DNA from: Antedon mediterranea
Lineage: Eukaryota > Animalia > Echinodermata
Reading direction: 5' to 3'
Assembly (NCBI RefSeq): GCF_964355755.1
Contig: NC_092675.1
Coordinates: 28,864,912-28,928,911 of the forward strand
DNA length: 64,000 nt
The notes beneath the pieces were generated by a model. The model did no database searches, was not told the origin of the DNA, and saw only the letters and a list, made by a program, of their open reading frames with translations. The position numbers were made by a program, and so were the translations under genes. This document shows positions 26,277 through 60,839 of the stretch, piece by piece; the first letter of the stretch is position 1; every line of letters starts with the position of its first letter.

Positions 26277-28151
26277 ATGCTGTCAAAATTAACAACGTTA
26301 AATGTCAGACAAATAGTTAATTTTTATATAAATATTGCAACTTTACTACCATTAATAGCAAGCCAGGAAGTAATCACAAATATAGCTGACAGAACATACT
26401 TTGCTGGTGAACAACTTACTATCACTTGTAGATTTGAATGTTTTGATGCACCTATTGACAAAAATTACATCAAACTTACAAAGAATGCCATCGACCAGCA
26501 GATATATACATCAGAGTTTGAGTTAACTCATAAAAGAGACAATTACATACTACAGTTATTCGAAATGTCAATATTGAATATTACAGAGTCCCACACAGGA
26601 TCATACAAGTGTGTCTATGATAATGGTATGCCTGTAATATCTAAGCAAGAAAAAACAGTTATAGTTTGGCCAATTCCTGTGAATCCTAAATGTACATCTT
26701 TGCAGCCATTTTATTTTGAAGGACAAAAAGTTAGCATCAAATGTGAAGCTATTGCTACATATCCAGACATTACATTACAATGGAACTCTGACAAATCCAC
26801 TTCTAAAAATCCTCACAACATAACATTCATTGCTGAAAAAGACATTAATGGGTTTGAATATCGATGCTCATTGAATGTACCATCATGGCCATGGAGTTCA
26901 GAAAAAACCTTTGCTTGTAAATTTACAATTTTAGTCACAAATATCAAAATAAACAATTGCGGTAATTTTACATTAGGACAATCAGCAACATTGCAATGCA
27001 TTGTGGATGAAACCATTTCAGATTTCAACTATACTTGGACATCAGAATCTTTAGAGATAGAAATTCATCAAAATAGAAATTCAAATTGCAAGAATGGTAG
27101 CAACAAATATTGCCAAATATTTGGAGATGACAACATTCTAAATATTGAAAGAGTGACAGCTGATATGAACAATGCTGTTATCACTTGTGAGGTACAAGGG
27201 TACAATGTTATTGGAAGAAAATCTAGTATACTTACAGTAAATGGACTACCTACTGTAGAACCTACAACAGATACAATAACTACTATTGAACCTACTAATA
27301 CAGTTGCAACTAAAAGCGATAGAAACTCTAGTAGAATTACTGTTAATGGACCATCTAGACAAGAACCTTCCATAGAAACATTGACAACTCAAAAATACAT
27401 CAAAACGACTACAACATATATTGAAGAGAACAATAGTGCAAACACATTTTTTATTTATGTAACTGTTGCACTTTTTGGATTTCTGCTTTTACTGATAATT
27501 CTAATTAGTGTTATTGTTATTTGTTTTTATCGTTTAAAGAGGTCATTAGGTCAAAGTAATCGAGTTGGCACAAGTCAGGCTATTGTCAGCTATGATAACA
27601 ACTCATACAGAGCAGCTCCCTACAAAGCAGAGCACTATAGAGCAAAGCCCTACAGAGCAGCTCCTTACAAAGCTGTGTCACTGTCAGCCAATGCACAACA
27701 ATTGCATTCTGACAATACTTGCAATAATCGTAAAGATTCACGGGAAGACAACCCTAATCTCCATTTTTATCATGAAATCGCTACAACTTCTGATGATGTC
27801 ACTGATGGTTACATGACCCCCTTGTTTATAGTTAGCCAATTAGATCACCAACAAAACTCTAAACAAGATATCCAAGAAAAACAAGCAGATACAAATATGG
27901 ATAATTTAACAAGCAATTTGGAAGTTGACAATGCATCAGATGATAATGTTGATTTACACACTTATTATGACATCAGCACAACTTTTGATGATGTCACTGA
28001 TGACTACATAACTCCTGTTTCTTTGCTGGAGCAGGTAGACAAAAGTGAAAACTCTAAACACACTGAACTTGAAGAACATCCATGTAAATTAATGTTAGAT
28101 CCTACAAACAGTACGACAGAGTCTATTTATTTAACATTGAGTGATTTATGA
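26277..28151 (+). CDS. R1: three-Ig type-I receptor, N-terminal type I, tail with C-terminal ITIM (624 aa, intact)
   Basis: Uninterrupted ORF: signal, GEQLTITC..HTGSYKC, GQKVSIKC..W..YRC, GQSATLQC..NYTW..NAVITC, Thr stalk, TM FFIYVTVALFGFLLLLIILISVIVICFY, tail ending SIYLTL. Confidence 0.92.
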   Translation: MLSKLTTLNVRQIVNFYINIATLLPLIASQEVITNIADRTYFAGEQLTITCRFECFDAPIDKNYIKLTKNAIDQQIYTSEFELTHKRDNYILQLFEMSILNITESHTGSYKCVYDNGMPVISKQEKTVIVWPIPVNPKCTSLQPFYFEGQKVSIKCEAIATYPDITLQWNSDKSTSKNPHNITFIAEKDINGFEYRCSLNVPSWPWSSEKTFACKFTILVTNIKINNCGNFTLGQSATLQCIVDETISDFNYTWTSESLEIEIHQNRNSNCKNGSNKYCQIFGDDNILNIERVTADMNNAVITCEVQGYNVIGRKSSILTVNGLPTVEPTTDTITTIEPTNTVATKSDRNSSRITVNGPSRQEPSIETLTTQKYIKTTTTYIEENNSANTFFIYVTVALFGFLLLLIILISVIVICFYRLKRSLGQSNRVGTSQAIVSYDNNSYRAAPYKAEHYRAKPYRAAPYKAVSLSANAQQLHSDNTCNNRKDSREDNPNLHFYHEIATTSDDVTDGYMTPLFIVSQLDHQQNSKQDIQEKQADTNMDNLTSNLEVDNASDDNVDLHTYYDISTTFDDVTDDYITPVSLLEQVDKSENSKHTELEEHPCKLMLDPTNSTTESIYLTLSDL

Positions 28152-29081
28152 ACATTAATAGTTAATTAAATGTTAATAGGATAAAAGAAAATACAATGCT
28201 TTTATTAATATTGAATAATATTTTGATCTGATCTGATGAAAGCTGCTTTTTAATTCTGGATATAATATGTTATGAATTATGATTACATTATATACTTGAT
28301 ATATTCATTATTGCTAGAAATATCATGCGGTCAACAAGCAGTAAAATGACTTATTTAAGATGGTCTGTTGGTCATTATACAGAAAATAAATGCTTAATTA
28401 ACACTGAATTGTGTATATAACTTTTGTAAAACACAGTATACAAAAAAATAGAAAACTAATGACTGTAAATGAAAATAAAAGAAAAACTGAAACCATGTAT
28501 TTAAAACTTAACGTCAATAAACAAACTAATTTAAATGCTTTGTTTATCAACCGATGATGGAAATGGCATCAATATTATATATTAAGAAGACAATATAAAA
28601 ACCTTTTCTAATTACTGTAATGAAAACAAAGATGACCAATTAGATCACCAAGATAACTCTAAACAAGGTATCCAAGAAAAACAAGCAGATACAAAAATGG
28701 ATAATTCAACAAGCAATTTGGAAGTTGACAATGCATCAGATGATAATGTTGATTTACACACTTTATTATGACATCAGCACAACTTTTGATGATGTCACTG
28801 ATGACTACATACCTAACTCCTGTTTCTTTGCTGGAGCAGGTAGACAAAAGTGAAAACTCTAAACACACTGAACTTGAAGAACATCCATGTAAATTAATGT
28901 TAGATCCTACAAATAGTACGGCAGAGTCTATTTATTTAACATTGAGTGATTTATGAACACTTAATAGATTAATAGTTAATTAAATGTTAATAGGATAAAA
29001 GAAAATACAATGCCTTTATTATTATTGAATAATATTTTGATCTGATCTGATGAAAGCTCTTTCTTGATTATCTTATAGTTA

Positions 29082-30962
29082 TCTATATATAAATTTACGT
29101 AAGGGCAAAATTCGGTAAATCGCGCCTTACTTTTAGAATTTTCACTCGATGGTATGTAAAGTTGGTTCGTACTTTTGATACTGATTTTAACCGCCTGATG
29201 TAACCCTGTTTACTAATTAAATTGAGTTAGATAATTAGTTATTGACGATTAAAACGAATTTAGGTTCAACGATTTGCCCCAAATAGGGGTGTTTTCCGAT
29301 CGTGGTATACACTGTCTAATGGATGTCCATCTTGAAAAATACCCGCCAAAAAAATGCGAGGAGGCTTCGCATTTTTCTATCTCCTCCTACGATAATTGTT
29401 TTTAATAGCTGAAAACCGGTTGAACAGCTAGAGTACACCATCATAATGTTGAAGACAGGCCGATTTTCTTTAAAAAATACTATTTTGATAGATTTAATAT
29501 ACGATTATACAAATGTATTGATTTGCGATGAATGGAACATCCCAATCTCTCAGTCTGCCAGAGTTTGGTTTAACACAAGTACTGTAGGTAAATTTATGAG
29601 CCCTTGGTTTAACACATACGGTAGGTAAATATATGGGCCCTTTGAGAATAAACTTGCAATAGGTTCGGAAAATGTTAAAAACCAATTTCTATTATTTGAA
29701 TCGGTAAACAGTTTCCATTTATTATACATTGATAATGAAACATGAAATATTCCTATTTATGTCCCTCGAGGTTCATTACAATTTATATTTAGTAGTCCCA
29801 CGGACTTCATCTTAGCCACTCCCCCGAGTGCTAAGGCCAAATTTATGATACCCTACTTTCTATGTAAGTTTAGTTACAGTTAGTTCTTGACGATAATACA
29901 ACGAATTTAGGTTACACCCTTCGGCCGCGAAAACGTTTCTGTACAAATATGATACCGATTGGCTTTATTTCATTCAACAGCGACCATAATCTCGCCAATT
30001 ACAGGATAGATAAACTATTTTATTATTGATGTGCTTATAAATTAAGACTCATGTAAACAGCTTGATTACATCATTTTACAGACAAACGAAACTTTTTTAA
30101 ACCTACTGTTTCAATAACTGAGTATAATACTGTATACGTTTTCATAAGTAAGTGCATATACATTTTCGTGTTTTCATTGACGAGATTGTAATAGTAACTT
30201 CAGTAACTATTACAGTACTTATTTATTATACGACACAAGACAATTGTATCTGACAGGTACGTACATTATTCTAAAAAATAAGTCTAGATAGATCCCTTAG
30301 GCGTCATAAATCACAGGCCAACAAATCAGTACTCATGACAGAAATTCGACCCAGTTTGGTTCACACAAATGTTTACAGGAAGTTCAACACCACAACCGAT
30401 GATTTGCCCTAAATATTTAGGTAGACTACAGTTTAATTTTTCACTGAATAGGAGCTTGAATTTCCGATTTCCATTTCGCAGAATGTCTAGGTCTATTTAT
30501 TTAGTTTGGTTCTTATAATATATAAATACAATCAACTTTATTACTGCGGTTCCATCACCACCACCACGTGCCGCCCAATTCCCGTACATACATTTCCATT
30601 TCTCCCTAATTTCTTTAATCCACATAAATTAATTGTCCTTTATGGAATCGAGTATTGGTTTTGTTGTCTCTATTTCTGAATACCCCAATTAGGGGGACAC
30701 TTCCGTTTTTGTTTAGTGCCGCCCAATTCCCGTACATACATTTCCATTTCTCCCTAATTTCTTTAATCCACACAAATTAATTGTCCTTTATGGAATCCAG
30801 TATTGGTTTTGTTGTCTCTATTTCTGAATACCCCAATTAGGGGGACACTTCCGTTTTTGTTTAGTGTCCCAAAAAAGTCCCCGTCCGTGGATTCTACTGT
30901 ATTCGAGAACCATCTGTGAGCACTCCTAGATGGTACGCGAGCGAAGCGAGCGTGCCATCTAG
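29082..30962 (+). mobile_element. Non-autonomous Helitron (~1.9 kb)
   Basis: 5' A|TCTATATATA; 3' hairpin GGTACGC-GAGCGAAGCGA-GCGTGCC then ATCTAG|T. Sits between A and T with no TSD; absent from the paralogous R1 flank. Confidence 0.8.
30568..30866. repeat. 148-bp direct tandem duplication inside the Helitron
   Basis: GTGCCGCCCAATTCCCGTACATAC... at 30568 and 30716. Confidence 0.95.
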
Positions 30963-31599
30963 TAAATTAAATTACATTATATACTTGATATAATTCATTA
31001 TTGCTAGAAATATCATGTGGTGAATAAGTGGTAAAATGGTTGATAGTAACTTTTTGAAGATGGTCAGTCTACAGAAAATAAATACTGTACTAAATAAATA
31101 CTGAATTGTGTATATAACTTGTGTAAAACACAGTATACAAAAATAGAAAACTAATGACTTTAAATGAAAATAAAAGAAAAACTGAAACCATGTATTTGAA
31201 ACTTAAATGTCAATAAACAAACTAATTTAAATGCTTTCTTTATCAACCAATGATGGAAATGGCATTGAAGACAATATAAAACCTTTCTAATTACTGTAAT
31301 GAAAACAAAGATGCAGTATTGGAGAACAAGAGTTTAGCTTCCTTTAGTTTTAGGATTTTTATTTGATTGTGACATTCTTTCTATAATATATCTTGTACAT
31401 ACATGTATATACACATATATTTTAACTTGGATTTTTTGCAAAAACACACATTTTTAAATTCTTTTATTAATTGCGTTCTTCCTTTTCTCTTTAAATAATA
31501 ATAAGAAATAAAAGCATTTCATTATTTATATATAGATGACACTGTAGCTCCATTATTATTCTTTATCATATTATACCAGAACATATAACTGAAAACTAA

Positions 31600-31735
31600 A
31601 TATTAATGAAAGTGTTGATTTACACACTCATTATGACACCGACTTTGAAGATGTCACTGGTGGATCTACAACTCCAGCTCTTTTGCTGGAGCAGGTTTGA
31701 CACATTAAAGAACACCTCTGTGAAGTAATGGTATA
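31600..31735 (+). pseudogene. Decayed relic of a receptor cytoplasmic tail
   Basis: GTTGATTTACACACTCATTATGACA..GATGTCACTGGTGGATCTACAACTCCAGCTCTTTTGCTGGAGCAGGT matches the VDLHTYYD..DVTDGYITPVLLLEQV coding segment. Confidence 0.7.
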
Positions 31736-32413: not shown

Positions 32414-34231
32414 ATGTTGTCAATAAATATTGTTTATATTTTTTGTGTGAACATTGTAACATTACCACCAATATCAAGTCAAACAGTACAAGTAGATATT
32501 GCAGATAGGATTTATTTTGCTGGTCAACAACTTACTATTACTTGTGAATTTCAATCTTTTCCAGAAAGTATTGATAAAAATAACATAAAAATTACTAAGA
32601 ATGATACATACCAAGTGATAGATACATCAGAGTTTAAGTCAATTTACGCTAAAAACAGGCTACAGTTATTTAAAATATCAATATTGAATATTACAGCGTC
32701 TCACACAGGATCATACAAGTGTGTCTATGATAATGGTATGTATGTAATATCTGAGCAAGAAAAATCAGTTATAGTTTGGCCAATTCCAGTGAATCCTAAA
32801 TGTACATCTTTGCAGCCATTTTATTTTGAAGGACAAGAAGTTAGCATCAAATGTGAAGCTATTGCTACATATCCAGACATTACATTACAATGGAACTCTG
32901 ACAAATCCATTTCTAAAAATCCTCACAACATAACATTCATTGCTAAAAAAGACATGAATGGGTTTGAATATCGATGCTTAACAATTGTACCATCATGGAG
33001 CTCAGAAATATTTGCTTGTAAAATTAAAATTTTAGTCACAAATATTAAAGTATACAACATTGGTAATTACATTTCATTAGGGCAACCAGCAACATTGCAA
33101 TGCATTGTGGATGAAACCATTTCAGATCTCAACTATACTTGGACATCTGAATCTAACAGTTTAGTACGAGAAATTGAACGAAACAGAAATTGTAATTACA
33201 CTGATAGCAACAGAAAAAACTGCCAAATGTTTGGAGATGATACGATCCTATACATTGAGAACGTGACAGCTGATATGAACAATGCTGTTATCACTTGTGA
33301 GGTACAAGGGTATAATGTTATTGGAAGAAACTCAAGTATACTTACTGTAAATGGACTACCTACTGTAGAAACTACAACAGATACAATAACAACTATTGAA
33401 CCTACAGGTACAGTTGCAACTAAAAGCGATAGAAACTCTAGTAGAATTACTATAAATGGACCATCTAGACAAGAACCTTCCATAGATACATTGACAACTC
33501 AAAAATACATCAAAACAACTACAACGTATATTGAAGAGAACAATAGTGCAAACACATTTTTTATTTATGTAATTCTTGCACTTTTTGGATTTCTTCTGCT
33601 ACTGATAATTCTAATTAGTGTTATTGTTATTTGTTTTTATCGTTTAAAGAGGTCATTAGGTCAAAGTAATCAGGTTGCCACAAGTCAGGCTATTGTCAGC
33701 TATGATAACAACTCCTACAGAGCAGCTCCCTACAAAGCAGAGCCCTATAGAGCAAAGCCCTACAGAGCAGCTCCTTACAAAGCTGTGTCACTGTCAGCCA
33801 ATGCACAACAATTGCATTCTTGCTATAATCTTAAAGATTCACAAGATGACAATCCAAAACTTCATTTTTATCATGAAATCCTTACAACTTCTGATGATGT
33901 CACAGATGGTTACATGACCTCCTTGTCTATAGTTAACCAATTAGATCATCATGAAAGCTCTAAATGTGAAGAAGTTATTAAACAAGAGAAACAAGCAGGT
34001 CAACAAACTAATATTAATTTGGAAGTTGACAACACATCAGATGAAAATGTTGATTTACACACTTATCATGAAATCAGCACAACTATTGATGATGTCACTG
34101 ATGGATATATAACTCCAGTCCTTTTGCTGGAGCAGGTAGAAAAAGTTGCAAACTCTAAACACACTAAACTTGAAGTAAAGGTAGATAATAATATGGAGGA
34201 ATCTTTTTATTTAAGATTAAGTGATGTATAA
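32414..34231 (+). CDS. R2: three-Ig receptor, type I, C-terminal ITIM (intact; ORF open from 32297)
   Basis: ATG 32414 aligns with the R1 start (GATAAAATG). Stalk, TM and proximal tail nearly identical to R1; D1 diverged; ends SFYLRL-SDV. Confidence 0.92.
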   Translation: MLSINIVYIFCVNIVTLPPISSQTVQVDIADRIYFAGQQLTITCEFQSFPESIDKNNIKITKNDTYQVIDTSEFKSIYAKNRLQLFKISILNITASHTGSYKCVYDNGMYVISEQEKSVIVWPIPVNPKCTSLQPFYFEGQEVSIKCEAIATYPDITLQWNSDKSISKNPHNITFIAKKDMNGFEYRCLTIVPSWSSEIFACKIKILVTNIKVYNIGNYISLGQPATLQCIVDETISDLNYTWTSESNSLVREIERNRNCNYTDSNRKNCQMFGDDTILYIENVTADMNNAVITCEVQGYNVIGRNSSILTVNGLPTVETTTDTITTIEPTGTVATKSDRNSSRITINGPSRQEPSIDTLTTQKYIKTTTTYIEENNSANTFFIYVILALFGFLLLLIILISVIVICFYRLKRSLGQSNQVATSQAIVSYDNNSYRAAPYKAEPYRAKPYRAAPYKAVSLSANAQQLHSCYNLKDSQDDNPKLHFYHEILTTSDDVTDGYMTSLSIVNQLDHHESSKCEEVIKQEKQAGQQTNINLEVDNTSDENVDLHTYHEISTTIDDVTDGYITPVLLLEQVEKVANSKHTKLEVKVDNNMEESFYLRLSDV

Positions 34232-35522: not shown

Positions 35523-37253
35523 ATGTTGTCACCATTTTTCCTGCTAAACTGTAAAATAATTATTATAGTTTTATGTTTGCAACAATCAACTAGTCTAGCA
35601 GCAGAAACAGGGCGTTTACATCCACCAGGAAGTCCAACAGTAAGCATACGTATTGAGAATAGAAATTATTTTGTTGGCCAAGAACTTCAAGCTACATGTA
35701 CATTTAAATCATTCAACAGGGAAGGAAGATTAAATAAAACTTACATTCAACTGTTACTAAATGATACAGCTTTAACAATTGACCAATCACAGATTGTTAC
35801 TATTTATGTAAGTAGAGATTACTTTATACAGGAATATAAAATAACAATATCAAAACTCACAGAGTCTCACACAGGATCATATAAATGTGGATATATAGAC
35901 GCTAAGGATTTAAATAAATCTTCTACACAAAACATTACAGTTTGGCCAATTCCAAAGGATCCAAACTGTACATCCTCACAATCATTCTATTTTGAAGGAC
36001 AAAATGTGACTTTAACATGTGAAGCTACAGCTTCATATCCAGATCTTGAATTGAGATGGAACTATGATAAACCAACTTCTAAAAATATGTGCATTAAAAC
36101 ATTTGTTGCTCATAACAATGATGATTTGGAAAACCGTTGCCTAATGAATGTACCGTCATGGAGCTCTAAAAGTTTGACTTGTGAAATTAAAATTTTATTA
36201 TTAAACCCTGAAGTGGTTATTGTTGATAACAAGTTTACATTAGGACAACAAGCAACATTGGAATGCATTGTGGGTAACACAAGTAATACTGTCCCAGAAC
36301 TCAACTATACTTGGATATCAGAATCTGAAAGTTTAATGAGAGAAATTGAACGAAATGCAAATCCCAATATCAATGGCAGTAGCAACAACAGCACAAATTG
36401 CCAACAATTTGGAGAAGACAAGATCCTAAACATTGAGAATGTGAAAGCTGATATGAACAATGCTGTTATCACTTGTGAGGTACAAGGGTACAATGTTATT
36501 GGAAGAAACTCAAGTATACTTACTGTAAATAGACTAACTACTGTAGAACCTACAACAGAAACAATTATGACAGAGAAAGAAGTAAGTAGTAATACAAAAA
36601 CTAAAAGTGGTAGAGTGTCCAATGACCCAGACACTGAATTCATTAAAACCATTGCTATAGTTTGTGGAAGTCTTTTACTGATATTTCTGATATACATTAT
36701 GGTTATTTGCTTCCGTCGTTTGAAAATAACTTCAAATCAAGATATCCAAGTTGGTACAAGTGTAACCCATGACAATGACTCTTATAACACAGTGCCATTG
36801 CCCATCAGTGCACCATTGACATCAGACAATACACAATCTTATGGTGATACTTGTCTCACTATCAATATAGAAGAGAACCCTGAATTCCATATTTATCAAG
36901 ACATCAATATAAATTCTGAAGATGTCACTGATGAATACCTAATTCCTCTGGCAATGGTTAAACAATTTGATGGCTCAAATTGTGAAGAAAATATGACATA
37001 TATTAAACAAACATGTGAAGGAATGGTTAATAAGTCAACAAGCAATTTGGAAGGTGACAACACAACAGATGATTTGTACACTCATCATGACATAAGCACA
37101 ACTTTTGATGATGTCACTGTATTTTTTGCAGAAGAGGTTAAAAAAGATGAAAACTCCAAACATACAGAACATGAAGAATACACCTACAAAGAAATTGTAG
37201 ATCCCATTAAAAATGATATAACAGATTCTTTTTATCTTGAGATTATTGAGTAA
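35523..37253 (+). CDS. R3: three-Ig receptor, type II, C-terminal ITIM (intact)
   Basis: Signal MLSPFFLLNCKIIIIVLCLQQSTSLA; GQELQATC..HTGSYKC; TM FIKTIAIVCGSLLLIFLIYIMVICF; ends SFYLEI-IE. Confidence 0.92.
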   Translation: MLSPFFLLNCKIIIIVLCLQQSTSLAAETGRLHPPGSPTVSIRIENRNYFVGQELQATCTFKSFNREGRLNKTYIQLLLNDTALTIDQSQIVTIYVSRDYFIQEYKITISKLTESHTGSYKCGYIDAKDLNKSSTQNITVWPIPKDPNCTSSQSFYFEGQNVTLTCEATASYPDLELRWNYDKPTSKNMCIKTFVAHNNDDLENRCLMNVPSWSSKSLTCEIKILLLNPEVVIVDNKFTLGQQATLECIVGNTSNTVPELNYTWISESESLMREIERNANPNINGSSNNSTNCQQFGEDKILNIENVKADMNNAVITCEVQGYNVIGRNSSILTVNRLTTVEPTTETIMTEKEVSSNTKTKSGRVSNDPDTEFIKTIAIVCGSLLLIFLIYIMVICFRRLKITSNQDIQVGTSVTHDNDSYNTVPLPISAPLTSDNTQSYGDTCLTINIEENPEFHIYQDININSEDVTDEYLIPLAMVKQFDGSNCEENMTYIKQTCEGMVNKSTSNLEGDNTTDDLYTHHDISTTFDDVTVFFAEEVKKDENSKHTEHEEYTYKEIVDPIKNDITDSFYLEIIE

Positions 37254-38697: not shown

Positions 38698-40319
38698 ATG
38701 TTGTCATCAAAGTCAGTTTTAGTGAACTTGTTAATACTATTTCTAACAACTTGCTGTTATTGCCAAGATTCCTATAGCTATGTACCTGAACCAAGTGTTG
38801 ACATTTCCATACCAGAAGGAACATACTTTGCTGGTAATAATTTAAATATTTATTGTGAATATAAATACATTGACAACTTCCATAAGAAACACATTGCACT
38901 TTTACACGATAGTAACATTATTGAGATACACTTTCTTGACTATAGAATAAATAGAAACATTTTTAAAAGAATATATGAAATGAGAAATATGTTAAGGAAT
39001 AACTCTGGATCATACAAGTGTGCATATAATACTAGCAACAAGTCTATTTTTCCATCCAAAGAAAAAGTTATTCAAGTTTGGTCAAAACCAGAGAATCCAA
39101 AATGCAAAGTTTCCCCACAATTCTATTTTGAGGGACAAGAAGTGACATTAATATGTGAAACCAGTGGTACATATCCAGAATTGACCTTAAAATGGGGATT
39201 TGATGAACCCACTTCAAAAAATCATGTTACAAAAAATGTAACCGCCATGAAAGATATTAATGGTTCTAAACATCAATGTATCTTAAATGTAAAGAGTTCA
39301 GTTAAACAGTGTCAAATCATTATTAAAATACATAATGTACACATTTTTGGTAATAATGTTACATTTGGTCAACCAGCAATATTGAAATGCATTGTGTCTG
39401 ATACGAATAATACCATTCCAGAACTCTACTATACATGGACATCAGAATCTAAAAGTTTAAAGAGATTAATTGAAACAGAAAAAAGCAATACAAGTTGTAA
39501 GAATATCAACGGTAACAACACAGATAATTGCCAAACATTTGGAGAAGACAAGATCCTAAACATTGAGAAAGTGACAGCTGATATGAACAATGCTGTTATC
39601 ACTTGTGAGGTACAAGGGTACAATGTTATTGGAAGAGACTCTAGTATACTTACAGTAAATGGACTACCTACTATAGAATTTACAACAGATACAATAACTA
39701 CTATAGAACCTACAAGATATAGAGCTACGACAGAAAAAGATAAGCACACTAGAAGAGAACTAACTACACAAGAAAATACAAAAACTGAAAGTAGTAGAAA
39801 CGACGACAAATTCATTAAAACAATTGCTATAGTTTGTGGAATCTTTTACTTATATTTCTGATATATATTATGGTTATTTGCTTCCGTCGTTGGAAAATAA
39901 CTTTAAATCAAGATATCCAAGTTGGTACAAGTATAACCTGTGACAATAACTCTTATAACACAGTGCCATTGCCCATAAGTGCACCATTAACATCAGACAA
40001 TGCACAATCTCACATTACTTGCCTTAAAGAAGAGAATCCTGAATTTCATATTTATCAGGATATTAACATAAATGCTGAAGACGTCACTGATGATTACCTT
40101 ATTTCTTTGAAAACATGTAACCAACATGATCAGAGCTCTAATTGTGAAGAAAATATAAACAATATAAACCAGGAACAAGCCTGTGAAGGAACAACAAACA
40201 ATTTTGAAGTTGACAACACAACGGGTGGCAGTGTTGATTTACACACTTATCATGACATAAGCACAACTTTTGATGATGTCACTGATGGATACCTAACTCC
40301 TGTAACTTGGCAGAGCTAA
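38698..40319 (+). pseudogene. R4: three-Ig receptor, type III; 1-nt deletion in the TM gives a 387-aa truncated product
   Basis: TGTGGAATCTTTTA here versus TGTGGAAGTCTTTTA in R3 (deletion at ~39841). The tail continues in another frame to 40319; out-of-frame SFYLDI relic at ~40395. Confidence 0.85.
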
Positions 40320-41550
40320 AACAGAGTTAAAAACAATGTAAACTTGAAAAACTATTTTACTAAAAAATGGTAGATTCCATTAAAAAGTACACATTCTTTT
40401 TATCTTGATATTATTGAATAAATGATTAGGATAGGTTAAACATTATTAAAACATATCTGAGTAGACTCTTTTGATTAGATTGTGGGTCACATGATATTCA
40501 ATCAATACCCCATTGAATCCATACATCATCAATTTGGTATATGGCCGTTGAATTTTTTTATATTGCCATTCATTTTTGTACAATGAGCAACAACCACATG
40601 CAATACAAGGATATGCTGCTCTGTCTGTAATTGTTCTTAACAAATCTTTTCGATTTGTTTAGGCCTTATACTAGCTTCTCATAAAATGTAGGTGTTTCAC
40701 CTCATCAAATTATTGTACAATTGCACTCATTATTTAGATAATATAAAATACAGCTACTACATGTAGTTACAAATACAGTACTGTTGATTATATCCTATAA
40801 AAGGATTAACAATTATATTCTTAATATGATGTACAGTTTAGATTTTATCTAAGACCTTAGCTCCATCTACAGTTTCTATTTCCTTCTCATATTTAATAAT
40901 TGTAATTATATGAAAAAGTTAATGTTAAGGGTTTTTCAAGAAAAACCAAATAATTTTTCTCATCAAACATCATTGAAAAATAAACTGGAACAATAAGCAA
41001 TGTCTGTTTTGTTTTGTGCTGATATTTGTAAAACAAATAAAAGTGAAAGTGAAATAAACTTTACATATCTGGAAACAGTTTCAGCCTGATACCTGGATTT
41101 TGTTCATATAATATCCAACATAAATCATAATCTCCAATATTGCTCTGCGCTTTAATGATTTTAATTAGTTTTGTAGAGAGCCCTATACAGAGGGCGCTAT
41201 ATAATTATTAAAAATACTGAAATGAGAAACTGATTCAGTTAAGTTACACTAAACTGCCTACAATATATCTGAAATTGTGAAGAATCAAATGTATATTTAT
41301 ATAAACACCAAATATATGATCAGTTCAAATGTTTATTTGTAAATGGTTTTGCTGTATAAATGTCCTTATTAACAACATTGTAAGATGATCTTAAGTTTTC
41401 TGTATTGAAATTATTATAGAGGGCAGTGTAGACTGCTACAGCTCAGCAAATCTCTACAAAGCAGTTGATCTCGACTAAGCAGTGCATAAAGTTGTTGTTT
41501 TTTATAAGAAAAATGCATATTTATCTACTTAACTGCCACGAAAAATTATT

Positions 41551-42500
41551 ATTGGAAGAGACTCTAGTATACTTACAGTAAATGGAATAATAATATCATT
41601 CCAGAACTCAACTATACATGGACATCAGAATCTAAAAGTTTAAAGAGATTAATTGAAACAGAAAAAAGCAATACAAGTTGTAAGAATATTAACGGTAACA
41701 ACACAGATTGCCAAACATTTGGAGAAGACAAGATTCTAAACATTGAGAAAGTGACAGCTGATATGAACAATGCTGTTATCACTTGTGAGGTACAAGGATA
41801 CAATGTTATTGGAAGAAACTCAAGTATACTTACTGTAAATGGACTACCTACTGTAGAACCTGTAACATATAGAATAACTACTATAGAAACTACAAGATAT
41901 AGAGTTACAACAGAGAATGATAAGCACACTAGAAGAGAACTAACTACACAAGAAAATACAAGAAGTAAGGAGAACAGTGACAATGAGACTTACCATGACA
42001 GCAACAGACATTTTACTTATATATTTATCATTGTTGCTATTTTTGGATGTCTAATGTTATTGATATTTCAAATCTACATTCTGGTTATTTGCTTCCATCG
42101 CTTTAAGGCTTCAAATCAAAGTGTACCTCAGGTTGGCACAACTCCACATACTATCGGCTATGTCAATGACTCTTACAACACAGTACCATTGTCCATCAGT
42201 GCACCATCTACATCAGACAATACACAATCTCATGGTGACATTATTTTCAATAATCTTACGAAAGAAGAATTCCATATTTATCAGGATATCAACACAAATT
42301 CTGATGACATCACAGATGACTACCTAATTCCTTTGACAATAGTTAAACAACATGATCACAGCTCTAATTGTGATCAAAATGTAAGAGAAATTAAACATGA
42401 GGAAGAAACTTGTCGAGGAAGGGTAAAGTCAACATAATCCGGAAGTTGACAACACAGATGAAATTGGTAATTTACATACTTATTATAACAGCAACTTTTG
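41551..42500 (+). pseudogene. R5: 5'-truncated receptor (part of D3, stalk, TM, tail)
   Basis: No signal, D1 or D2. Starts with an out-of-order fragment of the invariant block (41551-41586); D3/stalk nearly identical to R4; TM/tail like R6/R7; premature stop at 42435-42437. Confidence 0.88.
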
Positions 42501-44647: not shown

Positions 44648-46231
44648 ATGAACAGGAATCGTGGACTAGATACAATGTTGTTTCAATGCTTTTCAACAAT
44701 ACAACTTGGAAAATTATTTATGGTTACTTGCTATTTACATGTTGTTTCATCTGAGCAAACACACCAACCATTTATAAAAGAGGAAATCCCAAAAATAAGC
44801 ATAAGTACTGAAGATAAGACTTATTTTGCTGGCCAAGAACTTACTTTCACTTGTGAATTTGAATGGTTTCAAACACGTATCCACCAAATAGACATACAGC
44901 TTTCACAAAATGGTTCTTTTTTACCTAAAGATTCAGTTAAGATTGTTACAGGTTTCTCAACTGGGGATTACAGTATACAGGATTTTACAGTAATAATTTT
45001 AAATCTCACAAGGTCTCACACGGGATCATACAAATGTGTCTATGATAATGGTATGTATGTAATATCTGAGCAAGAGAAATCAGTTACAGTTTGGCCAATT
45101 CCAGTGAATCCTAAATGTACATCTTTGCAGCCATTTTATTTTGAAGGACAAGAAGTTAGCATCAAATGTGAAGCTATTGCTACATACCCAAACATTAAAC
45201 TAATATGGATCTCAGATAATGGCACTTATAAAAATCATCACATCATAACATTCTTTGCTAAAAAAGACATGAATGGGTCTGAATATCGATGTTTAACAAA
45301 TGTACCATCATGGAGCTCAAAAATATTTGATTGTAAAATTACAATTTTTGTCACAAATATTGAGATTGTTGTTGAAAATAATTTTACGTTGGGACAACCA
45401 GCAACATTAGAATGCATTGTGGGTAACACCACTCAAGTACTCAACTATACTTGGACATCAGAAAAAAGTAGTTTAAAAAGAGGAATTAAACAAAATCCAA
45501 ATTGTACAAATATCAATGGTGGTAGCAGCAAAAATACCAACTGTCCAACATTAGGTGATGAGAAGATACTGAAGATTGAGAAAGTGACAGCTGATATGAA
45601 CAATGCTGTTATCACTTGTGAGGTACAAAGGTACAATGTTATTGGAAGAAACTCTAGTATACTTACTGTAAATGAACTACCTACTGTAGAACCTACAACA
45701 GATACAATAACTATAGAAACTACAATTCTGAAAACTAAGCAAACTAGAAATGGACTAAATACACACAAACCTACAAATACTGATCATAACAATAACATTC
45801 AGAGTGGCAATGACAATAACAATATGATTTATGTCATCTTTGCTATTTTTGGATCTCTGATGTTATTGATATTTCAAATCTACATTCTGGTTATTTGCTT
45901 CCATCGTTTTAAGGCATCAAATCAAAGTGTTCATCAGGTTGGTACAACTCCACCTACTATCAGCTATGTCAATGACTCTTACAAATCAGTGCCATTCTCC
46001 ACAAATGCACCATCTACATCAGACAATACACAATCCCATGGTGACATTATTTTCAATAATCTTAAGAAACAAGGGAATGCTGAATTTCATATTTATCAGG
46101 AAATCAACACAACGTCTGATGACATCACTGGTGACTACCTAATTCCTTTGACAATAGTTAAACAATTTGATCACAGCTCTAATTGTGAACAAAATATAAA
46201 AGATATTAAATACAAAGAAACAAGCCTGTGA
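44648..46231 (+). CDS. R6: three-Ig receptor, type IV; tail shortened by a +1 frameshift near 46220 (527 aa)
   Basis: Open ORF with signal, three Ig domains and TM IYVIFAIFGSLMLLIFQIYILVICF. GAAACAAGCCTGTGAA here versus GAACAAGCCTGTGAA in R4; the rest of the tail is out of frame to ~46420. Confidence 0.88.
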   Translation: MNRNRGLDTMLFQCFSTIQLGKLFMVTCYLHVVSSEQTHQPFIKEEIPKISISTEDKTYFAGQELTFTCEFEWFQTRIHQIDIQLSQNGSFLPKDSVKIVTGFSTGDYSIQDFTVIILNLTRSHTGSYKCVYDNGMYVISEQEKSVTVWPIPVNPKCTSLQPFYFEGQEVSIKCEAIATYPNIKLIWISDNGTYKNHHIITFFAKKDMNGSEYRCLTNVPSWSSKIFDCKITIFVTNIEIVVENNFTLGQPATLECIVGNTTQVLNYTWTSEKSSLKRGIKQNPNCTNINGGSSKNTNCPTLGDEKILKIEKVTADMNNAVITCEVQRYNVIGRNSSILTVNELPTVEPTTDTITIETTILKTKQTRNGLNTHKPTNTDHNNNIQSGNDNNNMIYVIFAIFGSLMLLIFQIYILVICFHRFKASNQSVHQVGTTPPTISYVNDSYKSVPFSTNAPSTSDNTQSHGDIIFNNLKKQGNAEFHIYQEINTTSDDITGDYLIPLTIVKQFDHSSNCEQNIKDIKYKETSL

Positions 46232-48962: not shown

Positions 48963-50549
48963 ATGTTGTCACCAAAGTCAGTTTTAGTGAACTCGTTGAT
49001 ACTATTTACAACTTGCTGTTATTGCCAAGATTCCTATAGCTATGTACAACCACTGCCTGAACCAAGTGTTGACATTTTCATTCCGGTAGGAACATCCTTT
49101 GTTGGTAATAATTTAACTATTTCTTGTGAATATAAATACATTGACAACTTCCATAAGAAACACATTGTACTTTTACACAATAGTAACATTATTGAGATAC
49201 ACTTTTTTGACTATCGAATAAACAAAGACCTTTTTAAAAGAATATATGAATTGAAAAATCTTTTAAACAATAACTCTGGATCATACAAATGTGCATATAA
49301 TACTAGCAACAAGTCTATTATTCCATCTGAAGAAAAAGTTATTAAAGTTTGGTCGAAACCAGAGAATCCCAAATGCAAAGTTTCTCCACAATTCTATTTT
49401 GAAGGACAAGAAGTGACATTAACATGTGAAACCAGTGGTACATATCCAGAATTTACCTTAAAATGGGGACTTGATCAACCCACTTCAAAAAATCAAGTTA
49501 CAAAAATCGTAACTGCGATGAAAAATATTAATGGTTCTGAACATCAATGTATCTTGAATGTACAGAATTCAGTTAAACATTGTCAAATCATTATTAAAAT
49601 ACATAATGTACACATTTTTGGTAATAATGTTTCATTTGGTCAACCAGCAATTTTGCAATGCATTGTGTCTGGTATGAATAATACCATTCTAGAACTCAAC
49701 TATACATGGACATCAGAATCTGAAAGTTTAAAGAGAATAATGGAAATGGAAAAAAGAAATACAAGTTGTAAGAATATCAACGGTAACAACAAAGACTGCC
49801 AAACATTTGGAGAAGACAAGATCCTAAACTTTGAGAAAGTGACAGCTGATATGAACAATGCTGTTATCACTTGTGAGGTACAAGGGTACAATGTTATTGG
49901 AAGAAACTCTAGTATACTTACTGTAAATGGACTACCTACTGTAGAACCTACAAGATATAGAGCTACGACAGAAAAAGATACACAAGAAAATACAAAAAGT
50001 AAGGAGAACAGTGACAATGAGACTTACAATGAAAGCAACAACAATGTTACTTATATATATGTCATTGTTGCTTTTTTTTGATCTCTGATGTTATTGATAT
50101 TTCAAATCTATATTCTAGTTATTTGCTTCCATTGTTTTAAGGCATCAAATCAAATTGTTCCTCAGGTTGGCACAACTCCAGCTACTATCAGCTATGTCAA
50201 TGACTCTTACAGAGCCTTGCCATTGTCCACCAGTGCACCATCTACATCAGACAATGCACAATCTCATGGTGATATTATTTTAAATAATCTGAAGAAAGAA
50301 AAGAATGCTGAATTCCATATTTATCAGGATATCAACACAACGTCTGATGACATTAAAGATGATTACCTAATTCCTTTGACAATAGTTAAACAATTTGATA
50401 ACGGCCCTAAATGTCAAGAAAATATAAGAGATATTGAACATGAGGAAGAAACTTGTCAAGGAATGGTAAAGTCAACAAGCAATCTTGAAGTTGACAACAC
50501 AGATGAAATTGTTGATTTACATACTTATTATAACATCAGCAACTTTTGA
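48963..50549 (+). pseudogene. R7: three-Ig receptor, type III; in-frame TGA in the TM gives a 372-aa truncated product
   Basis: GCT TTT TTT TGA TCT CTG ATG versus R6 GCT ATT TTT GGA TCT CTG ATG. The downstream ORF 50088-50549 is in the same frame and open. Confidence 0.85.
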
Positions 50550-50604
50550 TAAATATTCACAGATGATAAATTACTCCTATCTATAGAACCATAGTCTGAC
50601 TATA

Positions 50605-53600: not shown

Positions 53601-53978
53601 AACAATTTAAGACCAAATTTAAGTGTCTACGATCAGTAGTTACGGAGATACATACATGCCCTGAGGTGTGGGTCAAAGGTCAGAAATGGCATTTCCGGTC
53701 ATTTTTGACTAAAATGTCCCATTAGACTGAATATAAATGTATACCTTCTGATCAATTTGAGACCAAAATTACTTCGCTGTGACCAGTGGTTGTTCAGATT
53801 TTAGGACATATTGGTGTTTGGTCTTATGACCTTTCACCCTGACCTTTTGACCTTTCGCCACATTTTCAAAATATGTAACCAAGCCAAAAATGATTGTTTG
53901 ACCACCCTAAACCAATTTCTGAAGTCAAATTCTCTGGACCTCAAAGTGCATACGAAAGTTGATCTAGCTACTAGAGTA
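50605..53978. mobile_element. Foldback-type non-autonomous DNA transposon, 3.37 kb, ~1.26-kb inverted arms, 3-bp TSD (ATA)
   Basis: Ends TACTCTAGTAGCTAGATCAACTTTCG / CGAAAGTTGATCTAGCTACTAGAGTA; arms 50605-51864 and 52723-53978; ATA at 50602-50604 and 53979-53981. Empty sites at ~42551 and ~60890. Confidence 0.92.
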
Positions 53979-55995
53979 ATAATAGAACCTAAATATATAC
54001 TGTATTGAACTTGAAGAACACTCTTGTAAAGTAAAGATTCGGGGATAAGCCCACCTATTCTCAAAGGATAAGGAGGACACCCATTCCCATAGATTCCTCT
54101 TCCAGGACGGTGGTCAATGCAGCCGGTGGTCAATGCAGCCGGCACTCAGATCATTTTAGGCACATTAATAAAGATCCTGAGATGACAGCCCTTTTCTTGA
54201 GTAATTTATAAAATGTAAATATTTTGGATAGATTAAATATACTATTAGCACATTAATAATTAATAAAATGTTTACTTTTTTCTGATGATAGTGTAATAAT
54301 AAGGAACTGCTTATTTGTGAAAAAGATTGTATAAACATTTCATGCAAATTAACAATAAAAACTAAACTGTAGCAGTCACTGGTATCTTTAAATTGTTTTG
54401 TTTCCTTCTTTTGCATGTTGATGTTCCTAAAACAAATAAAACTGAAAGTGAAATAAAGTGTAGACATCTGACGACAGTTTTAGACTACCATTTGTTTAAA
54501 CTATTGCTCACATCATATTACTTATACATTTTTCAATTATTTGTTCAGCAAAACCATTAAATTATTTTTATTGAAAATGTTGGAATTTTAGTGGTATATT
54601 CAAATAAAAATAAAGAAACAAAACTATGTAACACATTAGACAAAAGTATTGATTTACACAGTTATTATAACAACTTAACTCCAGTAAATTTGGTAGAGCA
54701 AGTTGAGGTGCAAATTCTAAACCCTGTTGCTCTTTCTCATTCTCATTAGCAAAACTACATTTATCTTGAGAATATTGATACATGTATAAAACATAAACAT
54801 TTTGAATGTTACAAGCACATTAAAATGTGCTTGTAAAAAATCCCGAAATATTATTGTACTAATTTAATTGTACAATAATACTGAGATTTTATACATATGT
54901 CAGGCAGTGGAGTCCGGTGGTTATCAAGAGGACACGGACATGTACTACTCATTCCCCTCAAATGAGTGCATTGGGTGCATTGCGTTATCCCAGTTAGCTT
55001 CACTATGTATGAGCTGAAAGGGTGTATCAAGTCATGCCATACAGTAATTTAAATAGTAACTTAAATTCCTAATTGGTTCCCACCCCATCCACCCCCATTT
55101 TAGTGGATTTTAATTTCGTATGTCTCATGGTCTTTTTATATTTGCTATTGTGATTTAAACTTTTTAGATTTGTAAACAATTTCATGTAATTCATAGCATG
55201 TTCTTATAGCTATTGCTTTGAATTGTTAATGTTTTTCAATATACTGCAAAAACTAAATACACACATAAGTAGCTTTTTTTATTTTAGAGTTAGAAAATGA
55301 TTATACTAAAAGAACTATATAGTTATACTTTAGAATTAAATGGTACAAATAATTGTTTTCTATGAGTTTAATGTAGAAAATATTGTTATTTTTTTGTGTA
55401 ATAAAAATAAAAAGCATAAAAATGCTCTCTCTATTAAATATAATACAAAAAACATTTAATAATTTCCTACCACATCTCTTGCATAATAATAGATCAGTAT
55501 TTCGTTGTTCATTTCGGTTTCGATCATAAACACAAAACCTGACACTGCCATCATGAGTTGATGTTATATGATTTTGGCTGAGCAATTATAGATGGCGCAC
55601 TATAGGTTTGCTTTTTCAATGGCATACTATTTTTCCATTGGAACTGTTGCGAGATAAAGCAACTCAAAATGTTTACAAGCTGATTTATAAATGGAAGTAT
55701 TTGAACATCACTTAAAAATTACCAATGCCATGTGATATGAAATCAACCAATAAGATGGCAAAGATATACTTAAGTTTGTTATAAATGTAACTACTCTACC
55801 ATGATCTAAGCAGTGACAATTGAAGAACAAAAGAAGAATTGTGTCCAACTTTTCTTGGGAAAATTAGAAAAACACTGACAGTATATAAAGTTTGTATGCT
55901 ATTTAAATGAATCAATCTTCTATGAAAGTTTTTACTGTAAATACTCAAGTGGACAAGCTGTTGTAATTTGTTGTTTATAGATTAAACTGAATACA

Positions 55996-58061
55996 ATGAA
56001 CAGGAATTTTGAACTAAATACAATGTTGTTTCAATGCTTTTCAACTATACAACTTAGAATATTATTGATGGTTACTTGTTGCTTGCATGTTGTTTCACCT
56101 GAGCTAACACACCCACCATTTGTATTTGTGGGGAAAAAACCAATAATCATAAGTACTGAAGACAAAACTGTTTTTGCTGGCCAAGAACTTTCTTTCATTT
56201 GTAGATTTGAATGGTTTCAAACACGTATCCACCAAATAGAAATAAAGCTTTCACTAAATGGTTCTTTTCTACCTAAAGATTCAGTTAAGATTGTTAAAGT
56301 TTTCTCAAATGGGGATTACAGTATACAGGATTTTACAGTAACAATTTTAAATCTCACAGAGCTTCACACAGGATCATATAATGTGTCTATGATAATGGTA
56401 TGTATGTAATATCTGAGCAAGAGAAATCAATTACAGTTTGGCCAATTCCAGTGAATCCTAAATGTACATCTTTGCAGCCATTTTATTTTGAAGGACAAGA
56501 AGTTAGCACCAAATGTGAAGCTATTGCTACATATCCAGACATTACACTAAAATGGAACTCAGATAATTACACTTCTCAAAATCCTCACATCATAACATTT
56601 ATTGCAAAGAAAGAATTGAATGGGTTTGAATATCGATGTTTAATTAACATACCATCATGGAGCTCAAAAAGCTTTGATTGTAAAATTATAATTGTTGTCT
56701 CAAATATTGAGATTGTTGCTAATAATTTTACATTAGGACAACCAGCAGCATTGCAATGCATTGTGGGTAACACAACTCAAGTACTCAACTATACTTGGAC
56801 ATCAGAAAAAAGTAGTTTAAAAAGAGGAATTCAACAAAATTCAAATTGTAAAAGTATCAATGGTGGTAGCAGCAAAAATACCAACTGTTCAACATTAGGC
56901 AATGAGAAGATTCTGAACATTGAGAATGTGACAGCTGATATGAACAATACTGTTATCACTTGTGAGGTACAAGGGTACAATGTTATTGGAAGAAACTCTA
57001 GTATACTTACTGTTAAAGAAAATACTGTAGAACATACAACAGAAACAATAACTATAACAGATAAAACTATGACTACTAGAGAAAAACATAATGGAAATGA
57101 CAGTGACACTGACAGTAAGTTAATTTATTTTGTTGTTGGAATATTTGGATCTGTTACATTATTGATATTCCTAATCTATATTGTGAGAATTTGCTTCCAA
57201 TTTGTCACAAAATCTTCAAACCAAAGCAGCGGGGTTGGTACAATACAAGCTATTGTAAGCTATGATAACGATTCTTACAGAACAGTGCCATTGGTGGTTC
57301 GTGCACCACCACCCAAGTTTGCCACTAAACTCCACCATACATCACAGCAATTATTAACAGACAACCAGATGAGTTCTGCTTCGAGTGTGATCTCTTTACC
57401 AGATGAAAGACAACGTCAAGGCATGAAACAAACATGGATATCGACACGTCACCTAACACCAGTACATTCAACCACTACATTTGGATCTAGTGATGACGAA
57501 TATACACACAGCATTGGTGAAATGTTTGATGACCCTATGTATGATGAGATAAATTCTAAAACATTGAAAAATCAGAGGGAAGATTTGAGAACAGAAGCAG
57601 ACCAAGTTGAACCTACTTGGAGTGGTGCAATACACAGAGATGGCAACGGAGCTGATGGTGATAAACACAAAACAAACACTGAAGATCCATATCAAGAAAT
57701 TGGAAATGAGTTTACAGCAAGAAACAAAAGACGAACATCAGAAGAAAATGCTTTGAATCCGTATGAGAAAATATCAGAATTGGAAGCTGGTTTTAATTCC
57801 GAAGAGGTGAATGAAAGTATCTATTCACAACCAGATAAGAAGAAATCCTCTCAAGAGACATGCCCTGATAATAAACAAGAGTTTGGAAAAACACAAACAA
57901 AATCAAACGGCAGTGAAACAGAACATATCTACTCTCAAGTTAACAAAAAGTTGAAAAACAAAGTTTTAAAGGATCAGTATCTGGAGATATATGCAGAGAC
58001 TGTGGACGTTGTCAGGAGTGATGGAAGTGAGTCTGAAGATGAAACAGAAACTACATGTTAA
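55996..58061 (+). pseudogene. R8: three-Ig receptor, type IV, with a unique long tail; 1-nt deletion in D1 at ~56380
   Basis: GGATCATATAATGTGTC versus GGATCATACAAATGTGTC in R6. The remaining 553 codons are open; the tail diverges from the paralogs after SYRTVPL. Confidence 0.85.
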
Positions 58062-59183: not shown

Positions 59184-60839
59184 ATGTTGTCACAATTGTT
59201 TACTTTAAATTTTCAAATAATGATTATGGCTTCATGTTTGCATACTACAACATCAGAAACAGAACATTTACCACCAGGAACTCCAACAGTACGCATACAT
59301 ATTGAAAAAAAAGAATATTATTTTGTGGACCAAGAACTTCAAGCTACTTGTACATTTGAATCATTCAACAGGGAAGGAAGTTTAAATAAAATGTACATTC
59401 AACTTTTACTAAATGATACAGTTTTACCAATTGATCCATCACAGATTCTCACTAAACATGTAAGTAAAGATTACATGACACAGGATTATCGAATACCAAT
59501 TTCAAAACTCACAGAGTCTCACACAGGATCATATAAATGTGGATATATAGATGATAAGGGTTTACATAAATCTTCTACACAAAACATTACAGTTTGGCCA
59601 ATTCCAAAGGATCCAAACTGTACATCCTCCCAACCATTCTATTTTAAAGAACAAAACGTGACCTTAACATGTGAAGCCATTGCTTCATATCCAGATCTTG
59701 AATTGAGATGGAACCCTGATAAACCAGCTTCTAAAAACAATCACAACAAAATATTAATTGCTAATAAAGATGTGGAAAGTCGTTGCATAATGAATGTACC
59801 ATCATGGAACTCAACAACATTTTTTTGTGATATTAAAATTTTAGTCACAAATCTTGAAGTGTATAATATTGATAATTTTACATTAGGACAACCAGCAACA
59901 TTGCAATGCATTGTAGGTACCATCAATAATACTGTTCCAGAACTAAACTATACTTGGATATCAGAGTCTAGCAGTTTAAACAAAGAAATAAAACAAAATG
60001 CAAATCCAAATTGCAAGAAAACCAATAGTAATAATAGCAACAGCACAAACTGCATTGGAGAAGACAATATTCTGAACATTGAGAAAGTGACAGCTAATAT
60101 GAACAATGCTGTTATCACTTGTGAGGTACAAGGGTACAATGTTATTGGAAGAAACTCTAGTATACTTACTGTAAATGGACTACCTACTGTAGAACCTACA
60201 ACAGATACAATAACTACTACAGAATCTATAACAAATGCAATAACTACTATAGAAACTACAACAGAGAAAATTATGACTACAAAAGAAAAACATACTGGAA
60301 ATGAAAATGCAAATAAAGATGAAACAAAAAGTAGTAACAATAACAATCTAATTTACTTTGTTGTTGGTATATTTGGATCTCTCACATTATTAATATTTCT
60401 AATCCTTGTTGTCGGAATTTGTATCCAGGGCATAAAAAAATCTTCAAACCAAAGCAGCGGGGTGGGTACAACTCCACCTACTATCAGCTATGTCAATGAC
60501 TCTTACAACACAGTACCATTTTCCACCAGTGCACAATCTACATCAGACAATACACAATCTCATGAAGATATTATTTTCCATAATCTCAATAAAGAAGAGA
60601 ATGCTGAATTCCATATTTATCAGGACATCAACACAACGTCTGATGACATCACTGGTGACTACCTAATTCCTTTGACAATAGTTAAACAATTTGATCACAG
60701 CTCTAATTGTGAACAAAATGTAAAAGATATGAAACATGAAGCTTGTGAAGGAAAGGTAAAGTCAACAAGCAATCTGGAAGTTAACAACACAGATGAAAAT
60801 GTTGATTTACACACTTATTATGACATCAGAAACTTTTGA
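59184..60839 (+). CDS. R9: three-Ig receptor, type II, tail without C-terminal ITIM (intact)
   Basis: Signal MLSQLFTLNFQIMIMASCLHTTTS; D1/D2 like R3, TM like R8, tail like R6/R7, ending HTYYDIRNF. Confidence 0.92.
   Translation: MLSQLFTLNFQIMIMASCLHTTTSETEHLPPGTPTVRIHIEKKEYYFVDQELQATCTFESFNREGSLNKMYIQLLLNDTVLPIDPSQILTKHVSKDYMTQDYRIPISKLTESHTGSYKCGYIDDKGLHKSSTQNITVWPIPKDPNCTSSQPFYFKEQNVTLTCEAIASYPDLELRWNPDKPASKNNHNKILIANKDVESRCIMNVPSWNSTTFFCDIKILVTNLEVYNIDNFTLGQPATLQCIVGTINNTVPELNYTWISESSSLNKEIKQNANPNCKKTNSNNSNSTNCIGEDNILNIEKVTANMNNAVITCEVQGYNVIGRNSSILTVNGLPTVEPTTDTITTTESITNAITTIETTTEKIMTTKEKHTGNENANKDETKSSNNNNLIYFVVGIFGSLTLLIFLILVVGICIQGIKKSSNQSSGVGTTPPTISYVNDSYNTVPFSTSAQSTSDNTQSHEDIIFHNLNKEENAEFHIYQDINTTSDDITGDYLIPLTIVKQFDHSSNCEQNVKDMKHEACEGKVKSTSNLEVNNTDENVDLHTYYDIRNF

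Follow-up and report, generated by a model that had tools for sequence, protein, structure and literature searches.

Several described groups of genes of the immunoglobulin superfamily (IgSF) can be compared with a tandem array of single-frame, receptor-like genes that we analysed in a 64,000-nucleotide stretch of the Antedon mediterranea genome (contig NC_092675.1, positions 28,864,912 to 28,928,911 of the forward strand), referred to here as the window. Nearest in architecture is the KirrelL group of echinoderms, whose proteins share with those of the array a signal, a V-like first Ig domain (D1), a four-cysteine second domain (D2), a third domain (D3), a Thr-rich stalk, a transmembrane segment (TM) and a tail; the lack of introns, stated for kirrelL, is also common to both (PMC8903837). 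The group consists of conserved orthologues that serve in skeletogenesis (PMC8903837), whereas the array is a fast-turnover tandem cluster: in its proteins D1 is without the C-strand Trp, D3 carries a Cys-bearing insert and Tyr modules are repeated. KirrelL was compared over about 400 residues, tails excluded.

The Alr genes of Hydractinia likewise form a cluster encoding single-pass IgSF proteins, with pseudogenes, domain shuffling, a divergent D1 and diverse Tyr-motif tails (10.1101/2022.03.04.482883). In Alr, each Ig domain, the spacer and the TM is one exon, the spacer is mostly Fn3-like, canonical immunoreceptor tyrosine-based activation and inhibition motifs (ITAMs and ITIMs) are present, and allorecognition has been shown genetically (10.1101/2022.03.04.482883); the array has a single frame and a low-complexity stalk instead, and is known here from sequence alone. 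The FF/FcoR genes of Botryllus are comparable in forming polymorphic clusters of IgSF genes whose YxxI/L/V 'core' motifs are in some cases paired, although they are multi-exon, paired receptor/co-receptor genes with canonical ITIM and hemi-ITAM (hemITAM) sequences, whose tails are switched via splicing and alleles (PMC12582321). In the array switching would instead occur through recombination in single-exon genes; tails with strict ITIMs or hemITAMs and a cognate FF-like partner are absent, and all neighbours are same-family genes.

Vertebrate paired receptors include the KIR, LILR/PIR, CD300 and KLR families. They combine similar ligand-binding parts with different signalling ends and are maintained through partial gene homogenisation (PMC3210942). 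Similar ectodomains on different signalling tails are also what we find in the array; in contrast to the vertebrate receptors, its proteins give generic Ig matches only and have no charged TM residue or strict ITIM and a single loose ITAM, positive selection on the ligand-binding domain is not seen among 8 paralogues, and the most homogenised part is the junction instead of the ligand-binding domain. The array therefore resembles Alr, FcoR and vertebrate paired receptors in organisation while belonging to none of them: it is a real lineage-specific, paired-receptor-like IgSF cluster. What is new is a mosaic of ectodomains and tails with the switch around a homogenised block at the end of D3.

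Organisation of the receptor array

The window (about 31% GC) is AT-rich, intron-rich animal sequence. Between positions 26277 and 60839 it contains nine related genes, head to tail on the + strand, the coding sequence of each being one uninterrupted frame that is open in five of the nine (g1, g2, g3, g6 and g9) and broken in the other four (g4, g5, g7 and g8). The layout per copy is a signal, three Ig domains, a Thr/Ser stalk, one TM and a Tyr-bearing tail. An initial annotation of this DNA had described the nine copies, their five open and four disrupted frames and the tail relics, all of which we recover; it had missed a tenth, distant member (g0), about 24% identical to g1 and with all eight Ig cysteines in common with the array copies. 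The members and relics are as follows.

18429..19883, + strand: g0, distant member, 484 aa; signal, three Ig domains, stalk, TM and 7-Tyr tail in a single frame
26277..28151, + strand: g1, open, 624 aa, ectodomain class A; the long tail has two Tyr modules, Tyr repeats of five residues and SxYxxL at its end
26367-26669, 26670-26939, 26940-27239, 27240-27446 and 27447-27527, + strand: D1, D2, D3, stalk and TM of g1
28631..28956, + strand: tail duplicate, a frame-shifted copy of the g1 tail end, 94% identical to g1
31606..31700, + strand: older tail relic
32414..34231 (open reading frame, ORF, from 32297), + strand: g2, open, class A, long tail
35523..37253 (ORF from 35454), + strand: g3, open, class B; tail type common to g4, terminal SxYxxI
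38698..40319, + strand: g4, class C; one-base frameshift at about 39841, where the TM begins; the frame of the tail is still open
41589..42437, + strand: g5, 5'-truncated, beginning inside D3; D3, stalk, TM and short tail
44675..46231 (ORF from 44648), + strand: g6, open, class D, short tail; the remaining tail runs out of frame to about 46340
47599-47722: weak tail relic
48963..50549, + strand: g7, class C; the TM start has an in-frame stop (50079-50081), short tail still open
56023..58061, + strand: g8, class D; one-base frameshift at about 56380 in D1, unrelated 287-aa tail
59184..60839, + strand: g9, open, class B, g8-type TM, short tail

Start codons of g2, g3, g6 and g8 (32414, 35523, 44675 and 56023) were placed by alignment, the longest ORF starts lying upstream. 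The tails of the 'open' g6 and g9 are frame-shifted and shortened. N-termini are hydrophobic (best 10-residue hydropathy 1.8-3.1) and the stalks, of 33-68 residues, are low-complexity with 25-36% Thr/Ser. The term 'intronless' holds for the coding sequence only: by eye, most starts have an acceptor-like AG site shortly upstream, so there may be a 5' untranslated exon. Chance open frames were ruled out (the probability of one open 527-codon frame is about 3e-19 at the window base composition), as were exons of a larger gene, each frame spanning signal to stop, and retrotransposon or viral ORFs, for which no such match was found.

The proteins belong to the immunoglobulin superfamily. A Pfam scan of the eight full-ectodomain copies and g0, with g5 left out, gave Ig-family matches in all of them and no Fn3 match; Ig_3, Ig_2 or ig exceeded the curated cut-off in everything scanned except two split g8 pieces. 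D1 keeps both cysteines and the tyrosine corner. In a structural model of g6 (12 alignment rows), D1 is confident (predicted local distance difference test, pLDDT, about 80-93), D2 poor (pLDDT <50) and D3 middling; an earlier g1 model (8 rows, mean pLDDT 53) was not used for structure searches. The best matches of the D1 model are IgNAR, heavy-chain variable (VH) and T-cell receptor (TCR) V domains (Z 11.2, root-mean-square deviation 2.4-2.6, 95-100 aligned), tied within 1 by I-set domains at Z 10.3-10.6, and Foldseek with the g6 model returned nothing beyond generic multi-Ig matches.

Past the breaks the frames are still open, and in simulations of 5% neutral change the g8 frame stays open 2.5% of the time; the open downstream frames suggest that the breaks in g4, g7 and g8 are recent, or errors. 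At the g8 frameshift site, contigs with an extra base occur in runs X1, X5 and X6, which paralogues would fit equally well. Within one ectodomain class, g4 and g7 (38698-39861 and 48963-50081) have lost the TM via different lesions at nearly the same place, and could, if expressed, be secreted ectodomains. Furthermore, the region from g5 to g6 (41589-45996) matches that from g7 to g8 (49677-57292), spacers included, in pieces of 79-94%, and the two look like copies of one segmental duplication.

A mosaic of ectodomains and tails

Array genes are mosaics of ectodomain and TM/tail types. By ectodomain the copies pair as g1/g2, g3/g9, g4/g7 and g6/g8; by TM and tail they group as g1/g2, g3/g4, g5-g7 and g8/g9, so that three of the four ectodomain classes carry two different TM/tail types. 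Trees of D1, D2 and the first part of D3 (D3a) give the four sister pairs with bootstrap values of 92-100 (three pairs printed in D1 and D2), the g3/g9 pair not being recovered in the D3a tree. The TM-region tree gives g3/g4, g8/g9 and g5/g6/g7, with a bootstrap of 99 each. Approximately unbiased (AU) tests that used seven copies (all but g5 and g8) reject the tail tree on D1, D2 and D3 data and the ectodomain trees on tail data (p<1e-4). Allowing two trees raises the log-likelihood by about 225 units, compared to at most 24.5 in 40 column permutations, and a rise of about this size is obtained for a split anywhere from 26950 to 27400 (g1 coordinates).

Pair-specific sites, summed over bins, change type along the genes. 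Before about 27130 of g1 there are 225 ectodomain-type sites against 1 tail-type site, and over about 27447-27690 there are 45 tail-type sites against 1 ectodomain-type site; the type changes between about 27130 and about 27430. Within this interval sits a 126-bp block of nearly uniform sequence, with a mean identity of 94% and a minimum of 89-90%.

27135..27260, + strand: homogenised 126-bp block, g1 copy, likely exchange site
33245, 36423, 39553, 41733, 45566, 49821, 56910 and 60069, + strand: block starts in the other copies
41549..41586, + strand: 38-bp exact copy of the g4 block end directly before g5, a rearrangement junction

When four-fold sites of the block are compared across classes, 40 of 423 comparisons show a difference, against 55/251 in D1, 123/381 in D2, 77/243 in D3a and 127/464 in TM and tail (22-32%), the pairs compared not being independent. 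This low silent divergence points to homogenisation of the block and not to protein constraint alone. Block depth in public runs is 30-50 times baseline; depth here is no copy number, and only loosely hints at tens of block copies. We propose that unequal crossing-over or gene conversion at the block would swap ectodomains between tails, an exchange that would do the job of exon shuffling in multi-exon clusters.

The g8 tail is unrelated to the other tails past its first 110 bases or so and has no second copy in the window. In each of the four public runs examined, single positions of this tail are covered by as many as 8 different contigs, with a summed depth several times the spacer baseline. 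The tail is thus multi-copy in the runs, and further g8-type genes probably exist elsewhere.

Selection, tail motifs and relatives

Amino-acid identity, averaged over 28 pairs, rises from 40% in D1 through 57% in D2 and 70% in D3 to 86% in the last 41 codons of D3, in keeping with the strongly diverged D1 and near-identical proximal segments seen in the initial annotation. In D1, copies are 25-84% identical, and 25-49% between the four ectodomain classes. A raised dN/dS in D1 had also been predicted, and this did not materialise. A codon model of eight copies on a fixed ectodomain tree (F3x4) gives omega values of 0.57 for D1, 0.43 for D2 and 0.60 for D3a (tree lengths 5.8, 3.7 and 3.3), each below 1 (p=3e-4, 3e-6 and 0.017), and about half of the sites fit omega=1 (M1a p0 0.41-0.56). 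Neutral simulations, which assume the true alignment and branch proportions, gave omega 0.77-1.20, with 0.97 recovered, and false positives in 0 of 15; when 15% of the sites were set to omega 3, the test picked this up in 14 of 15 simulations. For sister pairs alone, D1 omega is 0.80 (0.56-1.20). D1 is thus a fast, loosely constrained domain under purifying selection, and strong diversifying selection among paralogues is not seen.

The tails share a family module, YxxI-x10-Y[ILM]x[PS][LV], found 11 times in eight tails, twice in g1, g2 and g4 and once in g3, g5, g6, g7 and g9, with acidic residues preceding the second Tyr. Its spacing is ITAM-like, but it fails the ITAM consensus. None of 2000 shuffles reaches 11; since the pattern was derived from the same related tails, this shows conservation only. 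YxxP occurs 10 times versus 2.8 in shuffles, and the g8 tail has six Yxx[ILV] versus 1.4 (p=0.001). Tails do differ across members, as had been noted; the proposed division into ITIM-plus and ITIM-minus members is a weak one. The loose form SxYxx[LI], with which g1, g2 and g3 all end at the aligned C-terminus, occurs 3 times versus 3.7 in shuffles, and most ITIM-minus copies are truncated. The second module of g5, g7 and g9 has a small deletion in common; g7 and g9 end there, and the tails of g5 and g6 are cut off sooner. A 15-bp tandem repeat found only in g1 and g2 (27606-27660 and 33714-33783) places five tyrosines at a five-residue period beside the membrane.

Close relatives of the family are not represented in the searched libraries. 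A HMMER search of 1.84 billion representatives gave 122 matches, all generic Ig proteins at 22-40% identity and none at 1e-30. Word-based protein searches with the g1 ectodomain, the g0 ectodomain and a seven-sequence alignment gave none, although the alignment held two library proteins, which makes these blanks weak. Neither metagenome and viral contigs (no relative) nor Rfam (0 matches) added anything. The ESM Atlas returned generic IgSF clusters and, for the whole protein, one echinoderm cluster without a Pfam family (rank 2, 0.93), which was absent from the best ten rows for the ectodomain alone. The earlier view of a lineage-restricted family without a close orthologue agrees with the profile and word-based searches, which yield generic Ig at best. 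We found no description of the family in the literature searched, a search base without many relevant papers; older sea urchin immune-genome papers reportedly discuss Ig genes.

The pattern of V-like D1, four-cysteine D2, D3, stalk and TM is present in 8 of 8 window copies tested and in 5 of the 122 matches. Two of these five (922 and 1263 aa) differ in layout, and the pattern is not exclusive. Matches P0093 and P0122 aligned over the whole ectodomain (262-266 columns, 23% identity), the longest among the top 15; ranking 3rd and 15th of 122 by score, they are no better than the best generic Ig proteins. By eye, the KirrelL, Kirrel2L, Hypp1164 and IgTM sequences in supplement 7 of PMC8903837 have the V-like D1, the four-cysteine D2 and a similar motif at the end of D3. 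Kinship of the array with this intronless echinoderm group is likely, judging from these sequences, and the array probably originated from it. An echinoderm host agrees with this resemblance, with the echinoderm Atlas cluster and with a short repeat in the neighbouring introns of a kind present in feather-star genomes. The initial annotation had set the array apart from the multi-exon genes of known clusters; the intronless three-Ig layout does have a precedent in kirrelL, which is without introns in all echinoderms examined (PMC8903837).

The array could have arisen by lineage-specific expansion of adhesion or cell-fusion proteins of the KirrelL type (skeleton building, regeneration, nerve wiring), with Tyr tails that would recruit cytoskeletal adaptors. 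We regard this as possible but rather unlikely. Domain order, D2, the D3 end motif and the intronless kirrelL gene all agree with it, as do the excess of YxxP and the lack of diversifying selection; on the other hand, KirrelL proteins are described as well conserved phylum-wide and retain the C-strand Trp, whereas array copies diverge widely in D1, lack this residue, turn over fast and swap tails.

Variation around the array and its proposed function

The array is also present in runs of a second organism label (organism B), with about 3-7% difference and structural differences. In X5 and in X6, both from organism B, one contig joins 28423 to 31122, omitting the g1 tail duplicate and the high-copy element behind g1; the region has therefore undergone recent structural change. 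This element (29081-30925) reaches a summed depth of up to 10,000 times baseline and contains a 148-bp internal duplication. Run X8 ('RNA?') has about 1/6 of the depth of DNA run X1 on the element and the g8 tail and was not used as evidence.

Directly behind g7, an element at 50605-53978 has 1.28-kb terminal inverted repeats (91% identical), internal 301-bp tandem units and a 3-base target duplication relative to the empty site behind g5, and is probably a non-autonomous DNA transposon. Upstream of the array and unrelated to it, an intron-rich + strand gene (5700-17430) contains at least 15 exons that each encode one thrombospondin type-1 repeat, then a few other exons and a hydrophobic end, and stops about 1 kb before g0. 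Minisatellites lie at 20644-20959 (78 bp x4) and 11856-12120 (26 bp x10), and a GC-richer repeat at 62250-63870 has a 325-bp internal duplication (92%) and GACA/GACC microsatellites on its flanks.

Broken copies, relics and duplications bear out the birth-and-death turnover proposed earlier. They could also reflect a recombination-prone duplicated gene drifting under relaxed selection, with no more than one or two copies of importance and the mosaic as a side effect. The number of broken copies, the large share of sites fitting omega=1 and the relics and mobile elements interleaved with the array are consistent with such drift. We nevertheless consider it highly improbable, as four ectodomain classes this divergent in D1 each retain intact cysteines, omega is below 1 across the tree and the frames past the breaks are still open.

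Other samples also contain contigs 7-8% divergent from g3, which may be paralogues. If allelic, they would suit an allorecognition complex like Alr, in which highly polymorphic alleles, each binding its own type, settle what is self and what is non-self. Echinoderms reject allogeneic cells, and allorecognition is known in sea stars, the responsible genes not being identified in the available part of PMC9763293; clustered three-Ig genes, pseudogenes, domain shuffling and Tyr tails fit the Alr description as well (10.1101/2022.03.04.482883). Given that positive selection is not seen among the paralogues and that the array is without an Fn3-like spacer or one-domain-per-exon structure, we hold this account to be quite improbable, and an allorecognition role has no direct support.

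We favour, at an even chance, a tandem family of three-Ig genes with single-exon coding sequences and recombined ectodomains and tails, encoding recognition receptors for immune or other cell-contact sensing; an immune recognition role is likely, judging from turnover and tail diversity. Receptor genes would be duplicated by unequal crossing-over, the V-like D1 would bind ligand, and clustering would lead a Src-family kinase to phosphorylate the acidic-flanked YxxI-x10-Y[ILM]x[PS][LV] pairs, at which SH2 proteins would dock. Phosphorylation and SH2 docking are predicted here from what such Tyr motifs generally do. Similar inputs would then lead to different outputs depending on the tail: long (two modules and a terminal SxYxxL/I), short (a single module) or g8-type.

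Several results weigh against this recognition-receptor proposal. Ten of ten TM cores have no charged residue (K/R/D/E), the ten tails contain 0 strict ITIMs ([IVL]xYxx[LV]), and immunoreceptor tyrosine-based switch motifs (ITSMs) and hemITAMs are likewise 0 in the tails, with one loose ITAM (g3) versus 0.35 expected. Comparison of M1a with M2a gives no positively selected site class (p=0.63 for D1, 0.87 for D2 and 0.79 for D3a) among the eight paralogues. With 4 of 9 copies broken and a tail dN/dS of 0.85 for sister pairs (confidence interval 0.64-1.17), tail constraint appears weak outside the motifs. Because the breakpoint plateau extends over the whole of D3 and the stalk, the data do not single out the block as the sole crossover site. 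Finally, the closest architectural match, KirrelL, acts in skeletogenic cell fusion, not immunity (PMC8903837).

A bolder form of the proposal, which we think unlikely, would make the array the first echinoderm paired-receptor or histocompatibility-type complex: a single-exon KirrelL-like cell-fusion gene type co-opted into a large recognition repertoire, with the homogenised coding block as a built-in exchange site through which any ectodomain could be connected to any one of several signalling tails, no introns being needed. Should the array instead be a KirrelL-like adhesion expansion, it would add one to the lineage-specific arrays of IgSF genes. Genotyping and expressing such a compact single-exon cluster, with its shuffled ectodomains and tails, is easy, which makes it a testable candidate for the genes behind the rejection of allogeneic cells in echinoderms. 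If the recognition-receptor proposal is true, paired-receptor-style rewiring can arise without exon boundaries.

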